This document shows, piece after piece, positions 33,770-43,444 of a DNA stretch of 43,444 nt (position 1 is its first letter; every line of letters begins with the position of its first letter). A program made the position numbers and the translations under genes. Below the pieces are notes generated by a model. That model saw only the letters and a list, made by a program, of their open reading frames with translations. It searched no databases and was not told the origin of the DNA. The DNA is from a virus (Duplodnaviria; Heunggongvirae; Uroviricota; Caudoviricetes): IMG/VR virus record IMGVR_UViG_2851966386_000001, positions 1-43,444 of that record. The stretch is one strand, 5' to 3'.

Positions 33770-36700
33770 ATGGGTAAAGGCGGCAGTAAGGGGCATACCC
33801 CGCGCGAAGCGAAGGACAACCTGAAGTCCACGCAGCTGCTGAGTGTGATCGATGCCATCAGCGAAGGGCCGGTTGAAGGTCCGGTGGATGGATTAAAAAG
33901 CGTGCTGCTGAACAGTACACCGGTGCTGGACAGTGAGGGGAATACCAATATCTCCGGTGTCACGGTGGTGTTCCGGGCAGGTGAGCAGGAACAGACACCG
34001 CCGGAGGGATTTGAATCATCAGGTTCCGAGACGGTACTGGGTACGGAAGTGAAATATGACACGCCGATCACCCGGACCATCACGTCGGCAAACATTGACC
34101 GTCTGCGCTTTACCTTCGGTGTGCAGGCACTGGTGGAAACCACCTCAAAGGGGGACAGGAATCCGTCGGAAGTTCGCCTGCTGGTTCAGATACAACGTAA
34201 CGGTGGCTGGGTGACGGAAAAAGACATCACCATTAAGGGCAAAACCACCTCGCAGTATCTGGCCTCGGTAGTGGTGGATAATCTGCCGCCGCGCCCGTTC
34301 AACATCCGGATGCGCAGGATGACGCCGGACAGCACCACAGACCAGCTGCAGAACAAAACGCTCTGGTCGTCATACACCGAAATCATCGATGTGAAACAGT
34401 GCTACCCGAACACGGCACTGGTCGGCGTACAGGTGGACTCGGAGCAGTTCGGCAGCCAGCAGGTGAGTCGTAATTATCATCTTCGCGGGCGCATTCTGCA
34501 GGTGCCGTCGAACTATAACCCGCAGACGCGGCAATACAGCGGTATCTGGGACGGAACGTTAAAACCGGCATACAGCAACAACATGGCCTGGTGTCTGTGG
34601 GATATGCTGACCCACCCGCGCTACGGCATGGGAAAACGTCTTGGTGCGGCGGATGTGGACAAATGGGCGCTGTATGTCATCGGCCAGTACTGCGACCAGT
34701 CAGTGCCGGACGGCTTTGGCAGCACGGAGCCGCGCATCACCTGTAATGCGTACCTGACCACACAGCGCAAGGCGTGGGATGTGCTCAGTGATTTCTGCTC
34801 GGCGATGCGCTGTATGCCGGTATGGAACGGGCAGACGCTGACGTTCGTGCAGGACCGACCGTCGGATAAGGTGTGGACCTATAACCGCAGTAATGTGGTG
34901 ATGCCGGATGATGGCGCGCCGTTCCGCTACAGCTTCAGCGCCCTGAAGGACCGCCATAATGCCGTTGAGGTGAACTGGATTGACCCGGACAACGGCTGGG
35001 AGACGGCAACAGAGCTTGTTGAAGATACGCAGGCCATTGCCCGTTACGGTCGTAATGTCACGAAGATGGATGCCTTTGGCTGTACCAGCCGGGGGCAGGC
35101 ACACCGCGCCGGGCTGTGGCTGATTAAAACAGAACTGCTGGAAACGCAGACCGTGGATTTCAGCGTGGGTGCCGAAGGGCTTCGCCATGTGCCGGGTGAT
35201 GTTATTGAAATCTGCGATGATGACTATGCGGGGATCAGCATCGGCGGGCGCGTGCTGGCGGTGAACAGCCAGACCCGGACGCTGACGCTCGACCGTGAAA
35301 TCACGCTGCCATCCTCCGGTACCACGCTGATAAGCCTGGTTGACGGAAGTGGCAATCCGGTCAGCGTGGAGGTCCAGTCCGTCACCGACGGCGTGAAGGT
35401 AAAAGTGAGCCGTGTTCCTGACGGTGTTGCTGAATACAGCGTATGGGGGCTGAAGCTGCCGACGCTGCGCCAGCGACTATTCCGCTGTGTGAGTATCCGT
35501 GAAAACGACGACGGCATGTATGCCATCACCGCCGTGCAGCATGTGCCGGAAAAAGAGGCCATCGTGGATAACGGGGCGCACTTTGACGGCGAACAGAGTG
35601 GCACGGTGAATGGTGTCACGCCGCCAGCGGTGCAGCACCTGACTGCCGAAGTCACCGCAGACAGCGGGGAATATCAGGTGCTGGCGCGCTGGGACACGCC
35701 GAAGGTGGTGAAGGGGGTGAGCTTTATGCTTCGCCTGACCGTGGCAGCGGATGACGGCAGTGAGCGGCTGGTCAGCACGGCCCGGACGACGGAAACCACT
35801 TACCGCTTCACACAACTGGCGCTGGGGAACTACAGGCTGACAGTCCGGGCAGTAAATGCGTGGGGGCAGCAGGGCGATCCGGCGTCGGTATCGTTCCGGA
35901 TTGCCGCACCGGCAGCGCCGTCGCGGATTGAGCTGACGCCGGGCTATTTTCAGATAACCGCCACGCCGCATCTTGCGGTTTATGATCCGACGGTACAGTT
36001 TGAGTTCTGGTTCTCGGAAAAGCGGATTGCGGATATCAGGCAGGTTGAAACCACAGCACGCTATCTTGGCACGGCGCTGTACTGGATAGCCGCCAGTATC
36101 AATATCAAACCGGGCCATGATTATTACTTTTATATCCGCAGTGTGAACACCGTTGGCAAATCGGCATTCGTGGAGGCTGTTGGTCAGCCGAGTGATGACG
36201 CATCCGGCTATCTGGATTTTTTCAAAGGCGAGATAGGGAAAACCCATCTGGCTCAGGAGCTGTGGACGCAGATTGATAACGGCCAGCTTGCGCCTGACCT
36301 GGCTGAAATCAGGACATCCATTACGGATGTCAGCAATGAAATCACACAGACCGTCAATAAGAAACTGGAAGACCAGAGTGCAGCGATCCAGCAGATACAG
36401 AAGGTTCAGGTTGATACAAATAATAACCTGAACAGCATGTGGGCCGTGAAACTGCAGCAGATGCAGGACGGACGCCTTTATATTGCGGGTATCGGTGCCG
36501 GTATTGAGAATACGCCAGCAGGAATGCAGAGTCAGGTGCTGCTGGCGGCAGACAGGATTGCGATGATTAATCCTGCGAATGGCAACACAAAGCCGATGTT
36601 TGTTGGTCAGGGTGATCAGATATTCATGAATGAAGTGTTCCTGAAACGCCTGACGGCCCCCACCATTACCAGCGGCGGTAATCCTCCGGCATTTTCCCTG

Positions 36701-37267
36701 ACATCAGACGGGAGACTGACGGCGAAAAATGCGGATATCAGTGGCAGTGTGAATGCGAACTCAGGAACGCTCAACAATGTCACGATTAACCAGAACTGTA
36801 CGATTAAGGGCATGCTGGAGGCGACCCAGGTCAGAGGAGATTTCGTTAAAGCTGTATCAAAAGCCTTCCCGAAAAAAGTCGGTACGTGGGGTAACACGGA
36901 AACACCAAACGGTACGGTTACAGTCACCATCAGCGATGATCATAACTTTGACCGCCAGATTATTATTCCGCCCATTATTTTTAACGGTATAGCGTATGAC
37001 GATCCGGGGAGCGGAAATAACCCAGGAGGCACAAGATACACGGGTTATGGTTTTGAAGTTCGCAAAAACGGCGTATTAATCGCATCCAGAGAAACTAAAG
37101 GGGCCATTCCCGGTAGTTACAGTGCAGTTATTGATATGCCGAGTGGCAGGGGAAGCGTCACTCTGGAGTTTAAGATTTTCCAGAAAGGCAATCAGGGGGC
37201 AGGCAATATCACCGACTGTACGGTGATTGTGACCAAAAAAGCCGCTTCCGGCATCAGTATTCGTTGA
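33770..37267 (+). CDS. J: Central tail fibre / host specificity protein J (1165 aa; C-terminal receptor-binding region diverged from lambda J)
   Basis: The N-terminal ~1000 aa match lambda J as recalled; the last ~150-200 aa differ and the protein is 33 aa longer than lambda J (1132 aa). Confidence 0.9.
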
Positions 37268-37337: not shown

Positions 37338-37937
37338 ATGCGTAAAGTTTGTGCAGCAATTTTGTCCGCAGCCATTTGTCTGGCCGTATCCGGTGCGCCT
37401 GCATGGGCGTCTGAACATCAGTCCACGCTGAGCGCGGGGTATCTTCATGCCTCGACGAACGTCCCCGGCAGTGATGATCTGAACGGGATTAACGTGAAAT
37501 ACCGTTATGAGTTTACGGACACACTGGGGCTGGTGACGTCATTCAGCTATGCAGGAGACAAGAATCGCCAGCTGACCCGTTACAGCGATACCCGCTGGCA
37601 TGAAGATTCCGTTCGTAACCGCTGGTTCAGCGTAATGGCGGGGCCGTCTGTGCGCGTGAATGAATGGTTCAGCGCGTATGCGATGGCGGGTGTAGCTTAC
37701 AGCCGTGTGTCGACTTTCTCCGGGGATTATATCCGCGTAACTGACAATAAGGGGAAAACGCACGATGTGCTGACCGGAAGTGATGACGGTCGCCACAGCA
37801 ACACGTCTCTGGCGTGGGGGGCTGGCGTGCAGTTTAACCCGACCGAGTCCGTGGCCATTGATGTCGCTTATGAAGGTTCCGGCAGTGGCGACTGGCGCAC
37901 TGACGGTTTCATCGTGGGTGTCGGTTATAAATTCTGA
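37338..37937 (+). CDS. lom: Lom outer membrane protein (Ail/Lom family)
   Basis: Signal peptide (MRKVCAAILSAAICLAVSGAPAWA) and a beta-barrel-like sequence with a C-terminal aromatic residue (…VGYKF); the lambda lom position after J. Confidence 0.85.
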   Translation: MRKVCAAILSAAICLAVSGAPAWASEHQSTLSAGYLHASTNVPGSDDLNGINVKYRYEFTDTLGLVTSFSYAGDKNRQLTRYSDTRWHEDSVRNRWFSVMAGPSVRVNEWFSAYAMAGVAYSRVSTFSGDYIRVTDNKGKTHDVLTGSDDGRHSNTSLAWGAGVQFNPTESVAIDVAYEGSGSGDWRTDGFIVGVGYKF

Positions 37938-38001
37938 TTAGCCAGGTAACACAGTGTTATGACAGCCCGCCGTTTCAGGCGGGCTTTTTTGTGGGGTGAA
38001 T

Positions 38002-41000
38002 ATGGCAGTAAAAATTTCAGGTGTACTGAAAGACGGCACAGGAAAACCGGTACAGAACTGCACAATCCAGCTGAAAGCAAAACGTAACAGTACCACGGTG
38101 GTGGTGAACACGCTGGCATCTGAAAATCCGGATGAAGCCGGGCGTTACAGCATGGACGTTGAGTACGGTCAGTACAGCGTTATTCTGTTGGTGGAAGGAT
38201 TCCCGCCGTCACATGCCGGGACCATCACCGTGTATGAAGATTCCCGACCCGGTACGCTGAATGATTTTCTCGGTGCCATGACGGAGGATGATGCCCGTCC
38301 GGAGGCACTGCGCCGTTTTGAGCTGATGGTGGAAGAGGTGGCGCGTAACGCGTCCGTGGTGGCACAGAACACGGCAGCCGCGAAGAAGTCAGCCAGTGAT
38401 GCCAGCACATCAGCCCGTGAGGCGGCAACCCATGCGACTGATGCTGCAGGCTCAGCACGCGCAGCCAGCACATCAGCCGGGCAGGCCGCGACGTCGGCTC
38501 AGTCAGCGTCTTCCAGCGCAGGAACGGCATCAACAAAGGCCACTGAAGCCTCAAAAAGTGCTGCCGCTGCAGAGTCCTCAAAAAGCGCGGCAGCTACCAG
38601 TGCCGGTGCGGCGAAAACGTCAGAAACGAATGCGGCAGCGTCACAAAAATCTGCAGCCACTTCTGCATCCGCAGCGACCACAAAGGCGTCAGAAGCTGCC
38701 ACCTCAGCCCGGGATGCGGCGGCCTCAAAAGAGGCAGCGAAATCATCAGAAACGAACGCATCATCAAGCGCCAGTAGTGCCGCTTCCTCGGCAACGGCGG
38801 CAGGAAATTCCGCGAAGGCGGCAAAAACGTCCGAGACGAACGCCAGGTCTTCTGAAACGGCAGCGGGACAGAGTGCCTCAGCTGCGGCAGGCTCAAAAAC
38901 AGCGGCTGCATCATCTGCCAGTGCCGCATCAACAAGTGCCGGGCAGGCCTCAGCCAGTGCCACCGCTGCCGGAAAGTCGGCAGAAAGTGCCGCATCGTCT
39001 GCTTCAACAGCCACAACGAAGGCTGGCGAAGCCACTGAACAGGCCAGCGCAGCAGCGAGGTCAGCTTCCGCAGCGAAGACATCCGAAACGAACGCGAAAG
39101 CGTCGGAAACCCGTGCAGAATCCTCAAAAACGGCTGCCGCATCGTCCGCCAGTTCGGCGGCGTCATCGGCATCATCGGCGTCTGCTTCAAAAGATGAGGC
39201 GACCAGACAAGCGTCAGCAGCGAAGGGCAGCGCCACGACGGCATCCACGAAGGCGACAGAGGCAGCTGGCAGTGCGACGGCGGCAGCTCAGAGCAAAAGT
39301 ACGGCGGAATCCGCGGCAACGCGCGCCGAGACAGCAGCAAAACGGGCAGAGGATATTGCATCCGCTGTGGCGCTTGAGGATGCGAGCACGACGAAAAAGG
39401 GGGTAGTACAGCTCAGCAGTGCGACCAACAGCACTTCCGAGTCACAGGCGGCAACGCCAAAAGCCGTTAAGGCCGCGTATGACCTGGCTAACGGGAAATA
39501 CACCGCACAGGACGCTACGACAGCACAAAAAGGAATTGTCCAGCTCAGTAGTGCAACCAACAGCGCATCTGAAACGCTTGCCGCGACACCGAAAGCAGTG
39601 AAAGCAGCTAATGATAATGCGAATGGTCGGGTACCTTCTGCCCGTAAGGTGAATGGTAAGGCGCTTTCAGCGGATATAACACTGACGCCGAAAGATATTG
39701 GTACGCTTAACTCAACAACAATGTCATTCAGCGGTGGTGCTGGTTGGTTCAAATTAGCAACGGTAACCATGCCACAGGCGAGTTCCATCGTTTACATCGC
39801 ATTGATTGGTGGCGCTGGTTACAACGTCGGTTCCCCACATCAGGCAGGCATTTCAGAACTGGTTCTACGAGCAGGCAATGGAAACCCCAAAGGAATTACC
39901 GGGGCTTTGTGGAAGCGTACAGCCGTCGGATTAACGAATTTCGCCTGGATCAACACATCCGGCGATACATATGATATTTACGTTGAGATTGGCAATTATG
40001 CGACGAGTGTAAATATCCATTGGGATTGTACTGCAAATGCGTCAGTTTCTGTTTATACCTCGCCAACATATTCAGCGAGTAAGCCTTCCAGCGTTACCTA
40101 TGGTGTTGTTTATACGATGTATAGCACACATCAGAAACCGACGCCGTTAGATATTGGAGCACTGCCAACAACCGGAGGAACAGTTTCAGGTCCGTTGTCT
40201 GTTACAGGTGGATTAACTGGTTCATTGAATGGTAATGCAAGTACAGCCACGAAATTGCAGACGGCAAGATCTATCGGTGGAGTTGTTTTCGACGGTTCTG
40301 CAAATATTAACCTTCCAGGTGTAAACACTACGGGTAATCAGAACACCACTGGTAATGCTGCAACTGCCACAAAACTACAGACTGCACGGAATATCAACGG
40401 CGTTCCGTTTGACGGCACGAAGGATATTACGCTTACGCCTAAAGATCTGGATGCCTACAGCAAAAGCGAAGTACAGAGCGCACTGGCGGGCAAACAACCG
40501 CTGGACAATACGCTGACTAATTTGAGTGGAAAGGATGTAGCTGGTCTTCTCGCATACCTTGGTTTGGGCGAAACGATAAATAAAGCCTCCGGAGCTATGC
40601 AGAAATCGGCTAATGGAGCTGATATTTCTGATGTATCAGCCTTCCGAAATGCGCTCCAGTTAGGGACCGCCGCAACACGAGATGTTGGAGCAGATAATGC
40701 CTCGAAGTTACTGGGTTTAGACAGCTTCAGGTCAATGATGTCAGGGAATGGCTACATCTACATTCCATGCATTGCGACGACAGGAAACCCGGTGAAACTT
40801 ATGTTGCAGTGGGGAATGGTGGCAACACAAAAGGGAGCTGATGCTGGATATGCCTTACCATTTGCTTTTCCCTATGCAGGCTTATTTGCGACCGGAAACC
40901 GTGGAACATCTGGCTACAATGCCGCGATGAATGTGCGTATTGCCAGCAGAACGCATATCAGTATTCAGAACTGGTCGCCATCCGGAGAGGGCACCGAAGA

Positions 41001-41028
41001 TTGTTGTTTTATCGCGCTGGGGTATTAA
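38002..41028 (+). CDS. stf: Side tail fibre Stf (Ala/Ser/Thr-rich repeat shaft, variable C-terminal domain)
   Basis: The N-terminus MAVKISGVLKDGTGKPVQNCTIQLKAKRNSTTVVVNTLASENPDEAGRYSMDVEYGQYS matches lambda Stf; long low-complexity A/S/T repeat region; C-terminal domain ending ...CCFIALGY. Confidence 0.9.
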   Translation: MAVKISGVLKDGTGKPVQNCTIQLKAKRNSTTVVVNTLASENPDEAGRYSMDVEYGQYSVILLVEGFPPSHAGTITVYEDSRPGTLNDFLGAMTEDDARPEALRRFELMVEEVARNASVVAQNTAAAKKSASDASTSAREAATHATDAAGSARAASTSAGQAATSAQSASSSAGTASTKATEASKSAAAAESSKSAAATSAGAAKTSETNAAASQKSAATSASAATTKASEAATSARDAAASKEAAKSSETNASSSASSAASSATAAGNSAKAAKTSETNARSSETAAGQSASAAAGSKTAAASSASAASTSAGQASASATAAGKSAESAASSASTATTKAGEATEQASAAARSASAAKTSETNAKASETRAESSKTAAASSASSAASSASSASASKDEATRQASAAKGSATTASTKATEAAGSATAAAQSKSTAESAATRAETAAKRAEDIASAVALEDASTTKKGVVQLSSATNSTSESQAATPKAVKAAYDLANGKYTAQDATTAQKGIVQLSSATNSASETLAATPKAVKAANDNANGRVPSARKVNGKALSADITLTPKDIGTLNSTTMSFSGGAGWFKLATVTMPQASSIVYIALIGGAGYNVGSPHQAGISELVLRAGNGNPKGITGALWKRTAVGLTNFAWINTSGDTYDIYVEIGNYATSVNIHWDCTANASVSVYTSPTYSASKPSSVTYGVVYTMYSTHQKPTPLDIGALPTTGGTVSGPLSVTGGLTGSLNGNASTATKLQTARSIGGVVFDGSANINLPGVNTTGNQNTTGNAATATKLQTARNINGVPFDGTKDITLTPKDLDAYSKSEVQSALAGKQPLDNTLTNLSGKDVAGLLAYLGLGETINKASGAMQKSANGADISDVSAFRNALQLGTAATRDVGADNASKLLGLDSFRSMMSGNGYIYIPCIATTGNPVKLMLQWGMVATQKGADAGYALPFAFPYAGLFATGNRGTSGYNAAMNVRIASRTHISIQNWSPSGEGTEDCCFIALGY
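38400..39400. repeat. Degenerate tandem repeats encoding the Stf Ala/Ser/Thr-rich shaft
   Basis: Recurrent units such as AAKTSETNA.SSE / SAAASSASSA at the protein level; GC-rich repeats create spurious ORFs in other frames. Confidence 0.7.
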
Positions 41029-41030
41029 GA

Positions 41031-41441
41031 ATGAATAAATTTTATAAAGGCTCTTTCTATCCGAAAGCACTAAAAGAGGTATATATCAGCGCCGGTTCAT
41101 GGCCTGAAAATGGCGTTGATGTTGATGATGAAACAATGGCAATTTACACAGGCGTAGCGCCACAAGGCAAAACGCTGGGGGCTGATAAAAATGGTAATCC
41201 TGCGTGGATTGATATCCCGCCACTCTCCGCTGAACAACAGATTATTCAGGCTGAACAGAAAAGAACGGTATTGCGTTCTATGGCTGATAAGGAAATAGCC
41301 TGGAGACAGGATGCTTTTGATGCGGAAATCGCGACGGCAGAAGAAACCGCCGCGTTATCTGAATGGAAAAAATACCGGGTCTTGCTGATGCGCGTTGATA
41401 CAGCAAAACCCGTATGGCCTGTCAATCCGCAGGATATTTAA
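41031..41441 (+). CDS. tfa: Tail fibre assembly protein Tfa
   Basis: Start at ATG 41031 (MNKFYKGSFYP...); the C-terminus ...AEIATAEETAALSEWKKYRVLLMRVDTAKPVWP matches the conserved Tfa C-terminal domain. Confidence 0.85.
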   Translation: MNKFYKGSFYPKALKEVYISAGSWPENGVDVDDETMAIYTGVAPQGKTLGADKNGNPAWIDIPPLSAEQQIIQAEQKRTVLRSMADKEIAWRQDAFDAEIATAEETAALSEWKKYRVLLMRVDTAKPVWPVNPQDI

Positions 41442-41655
41442 CGGGGGCGTTGTAGGTGGTGACATATTCAAGCAGTTCTGTTGGATATGTCACCGTTGCT
41501 GCATCTCGCTCTACGTTAAATGTATCCGCTCCCCAGATAACACACTCCCTCAAAAATGCCTCCACCTCTGGCGAGACTTCAACCGCATCATCAGGTCGCT
41601 CTTGTTCAGAAACATAAAAACCAACGGTCGTTGGGCTGAAATACATATTCTCCAT
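41422..41655 (-). CDS. Inverted-orientation tail fibre assembly gene fragment (tfa-prime, 77 aa, N-terminal domain only)
   Basis: N-terminus MENMYFSPTTVGFYVSEQ has the Tfa N-terminal motif; convergent with tfa and overlapping it by 20 nt, as in invertible tail-fibre segments. Confidence 0.5.
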   Translation of the reverse strand: MENMYFSPTTVGFYVSEQERPDDAVEVSPEVEAFLRECVIWGADTFNVERDAATVTYPTELLEYVTTYNAPVKYPAD

Positions 41656-41657
41656 AT

Positions 41658-41893
41658 TTAGTATCCTATTGCTTCAAAATGCAAAGTCGGAATTTCGCCG
41701 AGATTGGGTGTCGTATACGACACAGTGAATCGCGTTCTTGATACGTCAGTGCCAGAATCAGTATCGCGATGCGTTGCCAGTGATTTCCCAGCCATTGATG
41801 ACTGGGTCGAAAAGCTGTAACTCGCTAGTGTTGCCAGCGTTGCTATTTGTGCATTTGGGAATTGTCTGGGGAAATTAACCCTGTAGTAATGGG
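41658..41893 (-). pseudogene. 3-prime part of an alternative tail-fibre variable segment (Sv-prime) cut by the IS insertion
   Basis: Joining 43207-upward to 41893-downward with one GGG copy removed restores a continuous reading frame ending at a TAA 2 nt upstream of tfa-prime. Confidence 0.6.
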
Positions 41894-41935
41894 TGAACCG
41901 CCCCGGGTTTCCTGGAGAGTGTTTTATCTGTGAAC

Positions 41936-42826
41936 TCAGGCTGCCAGATCATCGTTTCCGATGGAAGCATAATAAGCTTTTTCTGCTTCTGCCGGAGGAG
42001 TATGGCCCAGCCTTTCCAGCAATCGTCGATTGTTATACCAGTCCACCCACGTGAGTGTGGCCAGTTCCACTTCTGCACGGTTTTTCCAGCTCTTACGGTG
42101 TATTACCTCCGCTTTGTAAAGACCATTGATGCTCTCCGCCATCGCGTTGTCATACGAGTCGCCTGTACTTCCTGTTGATGCCAGTAATCCGGCTTCCTTA
42201 AGCCGCTGTGTGTAGGCCAGCGATACATACTGAGAACCTTTATCACTGTGATGGACCGTGCCGGACGGTCGACGGGCCCATAACGCCTGCTCCAGTGCAT
42301 CCAGCACGAATGTCGTTTCCATGGACGATGAGACCCGCCACCCCACGATGTATCCGGCAAACACATCAATGATGAACGCCACATAGACGAAGCCCCGCCA
42401 TGTGCTGACGTAAGTAAAATCAGCCACCCACAGCTGGTCAGGTCGTTCTGCCACGAACTGACGGTTTACGCGGTCGCCTGCGGCAACGGCTTTCCGGCTG
42501 ATGGTCGTACGGACCTTTTTACCCCGGAGAACACCGGCAAGTCCCATAACCGCCATGAGACGTGCCACAGTGCATCTGGCCACTCTGATACCTTCCCGTA
42601 ACAACTGACGCCAGACTTTACGCACACCGTATACCTTGTGATTTTCATCGTATACGCGCTGTATCTCTTTCTTCAGCCAGTCATCGCGCTGCGCACGGGC
42701 ACTGCGTTTATCCGGATGATGTCGCTGTTGCTGACAGTGGTAATACGTTGACGGGGCAATATGCAGTTCGCTGCATAGCGGTCCGACCCCGTACTGCTCA
42801 CGCAGCTTATCCAGCAGTGGCATCAT
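41936..42826 (-). CDS. IS3-family transposase OrfB (DDE integrase domain)
   Basis: 296-aa ORF with a DDE-type catalytic region (…DFTYV…HSDKGSQY…DNAMAES…) downstream of orfA. Confidence 0.9.
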
Positions 42827-43149
42827 TTTTTCCAGAGGCGGTCGAACTCCGCCTTCGCAAAATAAGCGGAAGCCTGGCGAAGGATATCGTTACTGCGGCG
42901 CAGTTCACGATTTTCACGTTCCAGCTCTTTCAGACGCTGACGTTCAGCGGTGGTGAGCCCTCCATCACCGCCCCCGGTATCCCGCTCATGCTGGCGAACC
43001 CAGACACGCAGAGTCTCCGGCGTACAGCCAATCTTTGGAGCAATGGAACAAATTGTCGCCCATTGTGAGTCATATTCGCTCTGACTTTCCAGAACCATAC
43101 GGACTGCCCGTTGACGGACTTCGGGGGAAAAACGAGTATTTTTAGTCAT
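42823..43149 (-). CDS. IS3-family transposase OrfA (HTH)
   Basis: 108-aa [56 protein letters not shown]... with a leucine-zipper-like C-terminus; the stop overlaps the orfB start at an A-rich run (TGGAAAAAATGATG). Confidence 0.9.
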
Positions 43150-43203
43150 CCTGTTTACCTCTTTCTCAGGAAGTTTAGTCTCCAGGATTCCCGGGGCGGT
43201 TCA

Positions 43204-43444
43204 GGGTGTAGTACAGCACTCCACCAAGAGTAATTGCGTTGAAATTACCAACAGGCGTCAGTGTCACAGTACCAACCTGTCGAATCATACCATTTGGGAG
43301 AATATCCCAGGCAGTTTGTCCGTTTCGCGACATACCAAATGCGGACATGTCCGGGAGTTGATTATTACCGGTTCCGACATCCCGTTTTGCCGCTTCTCCC
43401 AATTGAACGTTTATGAAAATGCAGAAATAGCGCGCAAATGGCAT
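43204..43444 (-). pseudogene. 5-prime part of the alternative tail-fibre variable segment (Sv-prime), continues beyond the window
   Basis: Translation ...FINVQLGEAAKRDVGTGNNQLPDMSAFGMS... parallels Stf ...FRNALQLGTAATRDVGADNASKLLGLDSFRSM..., i.e. a paralogous receptor-binding domain on the opposite strand. Confidence 0.6.

Follow-up and report, generated by a model that had tools for sequence, protein, structure and literature searches.

The IMG/VR record IMGVR_UViG_2851966386_000001 (Caudoviricetes), whose whole length of 43,444 nucleotides was analysed and is called the window below, ends on its right in the tail end of a lambdoid prophage, where J (33770-37267) and lom (37338-37937) are followed by the side tail fibre gene stf and the tail fibre assembly chaperone gene tfa. 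We propose that this region is a site-specific inversion switch of the Pin/Cin/Gin type by which the side tail fibre changes its tip. Its adjoining invertase gene is truncated and its spare tip is split by an insertion sequence (IS), and we put the probability at roughly 85% that the region is such a switch and that it has been flipped in trans since both of these lesions.

Crossover sites and segment orientation

In the orientation sequenced here, a constant part of the fibre gene (Sc) reads into an expressed tip (Sv), and a silent alternative tip (Sv') lies on the opposite strand. Two sites, in each of which a 2-bp core separates two inverted half-sites of 12 bp, bound the segment that holds both tips. 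The left site (40547-40572) lies within stf, where it codes for LLAYLGLGE, and reads TTCTCGCATACC TT GGTTTGGGCGAA with its core TT at 40559-40560; the right site (43394-43419) lies at the window edge and reads TTCTCCCAATTG AA CGTTTATGAAAA with its core AA at 43406-43407. The left site was first spotted by eye beside the corresponding site of prophage e14 (CTCTCGAAAACC TT GGTTTGGGAGAA), which it resembles; on a matrix derived from the half-sites of Mu gix, P1 cix and e14, it was then confirmed by the top score of the whole 43-kb window (25.0 bits). The right site takes the second score (17.8 bits) and, as TTCTCCCAATTGAACGTTTATGAAAA, is identical to the e14 right site at 23 of 26 positions, a match reached in 0 of 100 shuffles of the window; the first-pass annotation had recognised this site and its likeness to known invertase sites, and only its placement at 43391-43416 has to be corrected, by 3 nt. 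Three of the four half-sites are near consensus, and an exact-seed inverted-repeat search of positions 40000-43444 returned the IS ends only, without reporting the two crossover sites. On the plus strand the cores read TT and AA, and from outside to inside both read TT, so that the sites are inverted, as in e14 and P1. Identical non-palindromic core dinucleotides impose inversion in systems of the Gin/Cin/Pin/Hin type. The segment between the sites measures 2845 bp, which falls to 1532 bp once the IS is left out.

If a serine invertase cut at the 2-bp cores (TT 40559-60, AA 43406-07) and rotated the strands, this segment would flip, joining Sc in frame to Sv', with a 77-residue open reading frame (ORF), orf77, coming next. 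We built the predicted post-inversion junction (936 bp, joined at the cores) and searched for it in 5,426 complete E. coli genomes, of which 21 chromosomes contain all 936 bp of it at 99.3-100% identity, the window orientation (orientation A) being found in 33; these counts compare complete genomes (33 + 21 = 54). That other E. coli chromosomes contain the predicted recombinant junction with 100% identity bears out the earlier suggestion that the cassette is an invertible tail fibre switch of the Gin/Pin/Cin kind.

Two pairs of loci of opposite orientation are especially informative. In the IS-free pair, L002 (window orientation) and L004 (flipped), the 1532-bp segments are reverse complements of each other without a single mismatch, the right flanks are identical over 3500 bp, and the left flanks differ over 6000 bp by 3 mismatches, all of them more than 2.6 kb from the core. 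In the IS-bearing pair, strain EC29 (L001) and strain WCHEC005784 (L005), the segments of 2845 bp including the IS are likewise exact reverse complements with 0 mismatches, between flanks that are identical over 6000 bp on the left and 3355 bp on the right. Genomes of opposite orientation switch sequence exactly at the left-site core (40559-60), and since the two sites have different bases beside their cores, the exchange can be placed within the 2 bp of the cores themselves. As far as genome comparison can tell, exchange confined in this way is the signature of a serine invertase, as opposed to homologous recombination.

The flipped genomes also draw a recurrent annotation error, in that the Prokaryotic Genome Annotation Pipeline (PGAP) calls their stf an incomplete pseudogene 'missing C-terminus' (L004 3943-6267, L005 3943-6267, L015 3943-6255). 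The pipeline leaves the Sc-Sv' join unannotated, although the fused frame is an open 999-codon ORF; the pseudogene call is an annotation artefact of the inversion.

Truncated invertase and probable inversion in trans

Several E. coli chromosomes match the window with 100% identity, and the sequence to its right was read in one of them, that of EC29. Strains 164, NDM_11.16372, NDM_12_14482 and 5270 have the same allele as EC29. The leader toward the pin gene starts at 43420-43444 on the plus strand and continues identically in EC29 (L001 12446-12613), where a recombinase frame opens with an ATG 30 bp past the window end. The window itself holds no Pin homologue, and the frame beyond it encodes PinE residues 1-44 only, spread over two frames by a 1-nt deletion in a T-run, before it gives way to an unrelated DUF262 gene. 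The invertase gene that had been expected just outside the window is therefore present only as a frameshifted Pin-like stub. In Fis- and enhancer-dependent systems of the Gin/Cin/Pin/Hin type, a complete serine recombinase of about 185-190 aa is encoded beside one of the sites. The same two-frame stub with PinE residues 1-44 was found in all four compared loci (L001, L002, L004 and L005), and the junction between stub and DUF262 gene is common to at least 60 genomes at 97-100% identity, so that the truncation of pin is old. The first-pass annotation had named the lack of a nearby invertase, together with uniform orientation, as grounds for giving up the switch. A usable invertase is indeed absent, but orientation is abundantly heterogeneous, with 33 genomes against 21.

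Other loci with the same fibre cassette carry different remnants. The stub of TL-14 has 44 codons without the frameshift, that of 5CRE51 has 96 codons and is followed by RnlA/RnlB, and a pig isolate and phage phi458 retain 67 codons of a more distant invertase; in PK8217, the left junction only is present and a recombinase remnant is absent. No intact invertase gene adjoining the cassette was seen in any locus inspected, and a search for an intact progenitor, comprising the leader and a full pin gene, gave only e14 of K-12 (97.9%). The slot past the truncated gene holds varying cargo, namely DUF262 in EC29 and many others (L001 12698-14587), the RnlA/RnlB toxin-antitoxin in 5CRE51 (L015 8524-9949), and a reverse transcriptase with a SLATT protein in PK8217 (L017 8540-10439), so that this end of the prophage seems to be a place where cargo varies.

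The stub also retains the stretch in which an enhancer would be expected. The P1 record annotates the Cin enhancer as nt 19-90 of cin, and the stub equals nt 1-124 of e14 pinE but for two substitutions and one lost T in the T-run at nt 89-93 (~98% identity). The enhancer homologue is thus kept 48-119 bp past the window end, with the lost T at its edge; 86 bp separate its start from the right core, against ~100 bp between enhancer and site in Hin (PMC3798978). All four differently truncated stubs have nt 19-90 kept. The chance that four breakpoints all fall past nt 90 is (465/555)^4 = 0.49, close to a coin toss, so that the pattern does not demonstrate selection for the enhancer.

The order of events can be read from the IS. 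This element is a 1310-bp copy of IS629 (IS3 family) at 41894-43203 on the minus strand, with terminal inverted repeats, which splits Sv' and was missed by the first-pass annotation. It is bordered by a 3-bp target duplication, GGG, at 41891-41893 and 43204-43206, and excising it with one GGG copy restores, base for base, the 435-nt tip of IS-free E. coli genomes. Most of the IS-bearing query is held by 7 of the 5,426 complete genomes, and most relatives are without the insertion. Because the stub is found in all four loci and in many diverse genomes while the IS allele is rare and uniform, the truncation would have preceded the IS insertion, and inversion would have followed both. Truncation, then IS insertion, then inversion appears to be the most economical history, and at least two flips after the truncation would be needed, one among the IS-free genomes and one in the IS-bearing lineage. 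An inversion that postdates both truncation and IS insertion implies that the invertase was supplied in trans by another element in the cell.

The alternative that survives best holds that inversion ended when the invertase was truncated, the two orientations being older, inherited lineages. This would agree with an invertase that is dead in each locus inspected, with e14, Rac and Qin sites in EC29 that have no partner enzyme, and with the apparent clonality of most orientation-A genomes (100% identity). Yet one IS629 insertion, with position and duplication unchanged and 0 mismatches, occurs in either orientation in loci that are otherwise identical, which this account could explain only if identical IS629 copies had inserted independently in the two orientations. 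Furthermore, the stub-DUF262 junction is much wider and more diverse in its distribution than the IS allele of seven genomes, and IS-free genomes of either orientation also carry the identical stub. We consider a relic frozen in this way improbable.

Still less probable is that the alternative arrangement arose when a P1-like plasmid or a P2-like phage recombined homologously with the prophage or exchanged modules with it. Fibre modules are clearly traded between phage families, and P1-like plasmids (90-120 kb) and a P2-like phage carry homologues of both Sv and Sv' with the same Sc-Sv' junction. These donor homologues, however, are 89-97% identical, whereas the flipped segments have 0 mismatches; both junctions fall exactly at the 2-bp cores, although the flanks of the two sites have no common identity; and a double crossover with such donors would not give reversal of the whole segment with the flanks unchanged.

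The version put forward in the first-pass annotation, in which the partner site is the region of stf coding for the QLG..RDVG motif (about 40655-40690) and an active pin/gin gene lies to the right of the window, is very doubtful. The motif does occur in both tips and a recombinase frame does begin beyond the window end, but the stf region scores at best 1.2 bits and is identical to the right site at 9 of 26 positions, all inverted genomes switch at 40559-60, and the recombinase is a 44-codon frameshifted stub. The real left site lies 107 bp upstream of the region first proposed. Equally slight is the chance that the two orientations are assembly artefacts arising where a segment is mixed in culture and assemblers choose one state, given that the inverted repeats (26 bp, imperfect) are far too short to confuse long-read assembly, that 54 complete genomes from many laboratories and countries show two exact states, and that a mixed culture would itself imply active inversion.

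For inversion in trans, the enzyme could be a related invertase of another element, such as one that is P2-, P1-, Mu- or e14-like. Prophage Qin encodes PinQ, which inverts the e14 segment, and the sites used there are near-identical to those described here (PMC12529663). The P2-like phage S164 encodes an intact invertase that is 87% identical to PinE; its left site equals the recombinant left site of the cassette, and its right site shares the outer half, which is the same in e14. S164 serves only as an example of a compatible invertase, being named after its host 'strain 164', from piglets in China, which is probably a different strain from the window-matching strain 164. A near full-length pinE-type gene is present in ~22% of complete E. 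coli genomes.

Several points weigh against our reading. The right inner half-site (TTCTCCCAATTG) is off consensus in 3 core-adjacent bases (AATTG versus AAACC), and the 17.8 bits of the right site are, taken alone, within the random range (maximum 18.8 in 30 randomisations). The trans-acting invertase was not located in any genome identical to the window. In EC29, the attachment regions of e14, Rac and Qin are all empty, and the first 50 kb of the 147-kb NDM-5 plasmid (pEC29-NDM-5) hold only recombinases adjoining Tn3-family transposase genes; there are two more chromosomal matches to the DUF262 anchor plus the C-terminal coding part of pinE, either of which may be an intact gene or a remnant. 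The orientation differences are between genomes and not among reads of one culture, and it is by homology only that an enhancer function is ascribed to the stub. We put the odds that flipping still occurs in the source strain at near even.

A more general possibility, which we offer tentatively and think rather less likely than its opposite, is that fibre switches without an invertase keep their sites and an enhancer-bearing stub and so stay flippable by the invertases that P2-, P1-, Mu- or e14-like elements in the same cell encode, the 3' part of pin serving as a recurrent point of replacement by defence-type cargo (DUF262, RnlA/RnlB, reverse transcriptase with SLATT). If true, the host-range or surface state of one prophage would be set by the enzyme of another element.

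Comparison with known inversion systems

The closest counterpart of the cassette is the P segment of e14 in K-12, whose gene order and strands (stfP-tfaP / tfaE-stfE' / pinE) are the same. Besides the match of its right site and outer half, e14 has a similar leader and a left site of the same type, and its segment of 1797 bp compares with 1532 bp here without the IS. The two differ in that e14 keeps an intact pinE, against 44 codons here; that its constant part is a short stfP, against a full lambdoid stf of 855 codons; that its second chaperone is TfaE, against a 77-aa ORF without detectable TfaE similarity; and that its spare tip, unlike the one described here, is free of IS629. The e14 segment is also flippable by the invertase of another prophage (PMC12529663). 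The action of PinQ on e14 is thus a case of an unlinked invertase flipping a segment, as the comparative data require here. In that case, however, the target has its own PinE as well, whereas the present target would depend wholly on a foreign enzyme, whose action is deduced from genome comparison.

The C segment of P1 with Cin and the G segment of Mu with Gin share 26-bp sites whose 12-bp half-sites follow the same consensus and whose 2-bp core falls within the fibre gene. They also share the layout of Sc/Sv, U, U' and Sv', and an enhancer in the 5' part of the invertase gene, as here by homology. P1 and Mu are myoviruses that encode their own working invertases, whereas the present cassette has none and belongs to a lambdoid prophage with J and lom. 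Its core (TT/AA) agrees with P1 and e14 but differs from that of Mu (TC/GA), and it is the 5' end of the invertase gene that adjoins the site here, in contrast to the 3' end in P1. The tips of P1-like plasmids are 91-97% identical to Sv and Sv', with the same Sc-Sv' junction and an identical orf77 protein. Among lambdoid phages, LLS carries two opposed tail fibre genes and an invertase, and its side fibre tips are predicted to switch by inversion (PMC12315714). LLS has an invertase gene that the present cassette lacks, and the likeness drawn between them is one of described layout.

The 26-bp junction TTCTCGCATACCTTCAATTGGGAGAA is identical in the fibre genes of a P1-like plasmid (L011 7260), of S164 (L019 6068) and of phi458 (L012 5080), so that a single site-plus-tip module is common to three phage families. 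Phage phi458 (OP434518.1; L012 3136-3833; host field E. coli MC1061) is itself lambdoid; it is in the flipped orientation and carries an IS1 in its silent Sv copy, together with a remnant of a different invertase counted at this locus as 92 codons, against the 67 stated above.

Fibre genes and the meaning of the switch

As sequenced, the fibre is complete, stf (37996-41028, plus strand) being a 1010-aa Sc-Sv ORF that is followed by tfa; PGAP names its product 'prophage tail fiber N-terminal domain-containing protein'. Sc spans 37996-40560 on the plus strand, about 855 codons up to the crossover core, and is the same in genomes of either orientation. The middle of stf (38400-39400) is a long repetitive stretch rich in Ala, Ser and Thr (…SASAAxTSA…), with spurious long ORFs in several other frames. 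Sv (40561-41028, plus strand; 155 aa) matches tail fibre families of PHROGs, and in orientation-B (flipped) genomes it is reverse-complemented and adjoins the pin stub. The chaperone gene paired with it, tfa (41031-41441, plus strand), matches Caudo_TAP of Pfam (E=2.4e-31) and phrog_188 (E=3.8e-42).

Facing these genes on the minus strand are orf77 (41422-41655), which occupies the position of a second chaperone gene (tfa') and overlaps the 3' end of tfa by 20 bp, and the promoterless tip Sv', whose ORF runs off the window end. The C-terminal fragment of Sv' (41658-41893, minus strand) and its N-terminal fragment (43204-43405, minus strand) are separated by the IS. The earlier description of stf and tfa on the plus strand facing a tfa-like ORF and Sv' on the minus strand agrees with the ORFs, with Caudo_TAP and with the Gp53-like_C domain (Pfam) present in both tips. 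A protein identical to that of orf77, WP_001619155.1, comes after the same tip in a P1-like plasmid, and in phi458 an ORF sits at the same position. The orf77 protein has no match in Pfam and no detectable similarity to TfaE, and it matches the Tfa family phrog_188 over aa 1-31 only (E=8e-5); its position, the plasmid neighbour and the placement of the phi458 ORF suggest a chaperone role.

Both tips share a motif, QLGTAATRDVG in stf and QLGEAAKRDVG in Sv' (DNA identity 23/33; local protein match 50%), which the first-pass annotation had rightly noticed and had wrongly linked to the crossover point. It is a conserved fibre motif, found at the very start of Sv', at the crossover core, but 32 codons into Sv, and the crossover point lies elsewhere. 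After inversion, Sv' would be in frame with Sc, and without the IS the fusion is a 999-aa frame (…LLAYL joined to QLGEAAKRDVG…) followed by orf77. In the window allele, a flip would produce a truncated fibre of 931 aa whose frame continues into the IS, as seen in WCHEC005784.

The IS629 copy encodes orfA (42823-43149, minus strand; 108 aa) and orfB (41936-42826, minus strand; 296 aa), annotated by PGAP as 'IS3 family transposase, programmed frameshift'. Over a stretch of 795 bp, its identity to another copy, called 'IS3-like element IS629 family' by PGAP, is 100%. In strain IH5 (NZ_CP168269.1; L020 4835-5177, L021 3165-6596), the two halves of the locus lie ~580 kb apart. An invertase product was considered for this split and rejected, the break being at the IS629 position and away from the crossover sites, which points to a large IS-mediated rearrangement. 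EC29 has a second lambdoid prophage, at potB (L007 16502-19985), in which an IS629 copy interrupts the fibre region and a group II intron (ltrA) in turn interrupts that copy; a recombinase annotation is absent there.

The mechanism is a textbook one, and both lambdoid invertible side fibres (PMC12315714) and cross-acting invertases (PMC12529663) have already been described, so that the present case refines known biology. From the genomes compared, it appears to be a real fibre switch of the Pin/Cin type that has lost its own invertase and was nevertheless flipped by a foreign one. An invertible fibre cassette without an adjoining invertase gene need not be fixed, and its orientation may differ between near-identical clinical genomes, the allele being present in strains such as EC29 with its NDM-5 plasmid; in one of the two orientations, PGAP miscalls the fibre as a pseudogene. 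The 26-bp sites and tip modules found in lambdoid, P2-like and P1-like elements are what permits such cross-talk between invertases.

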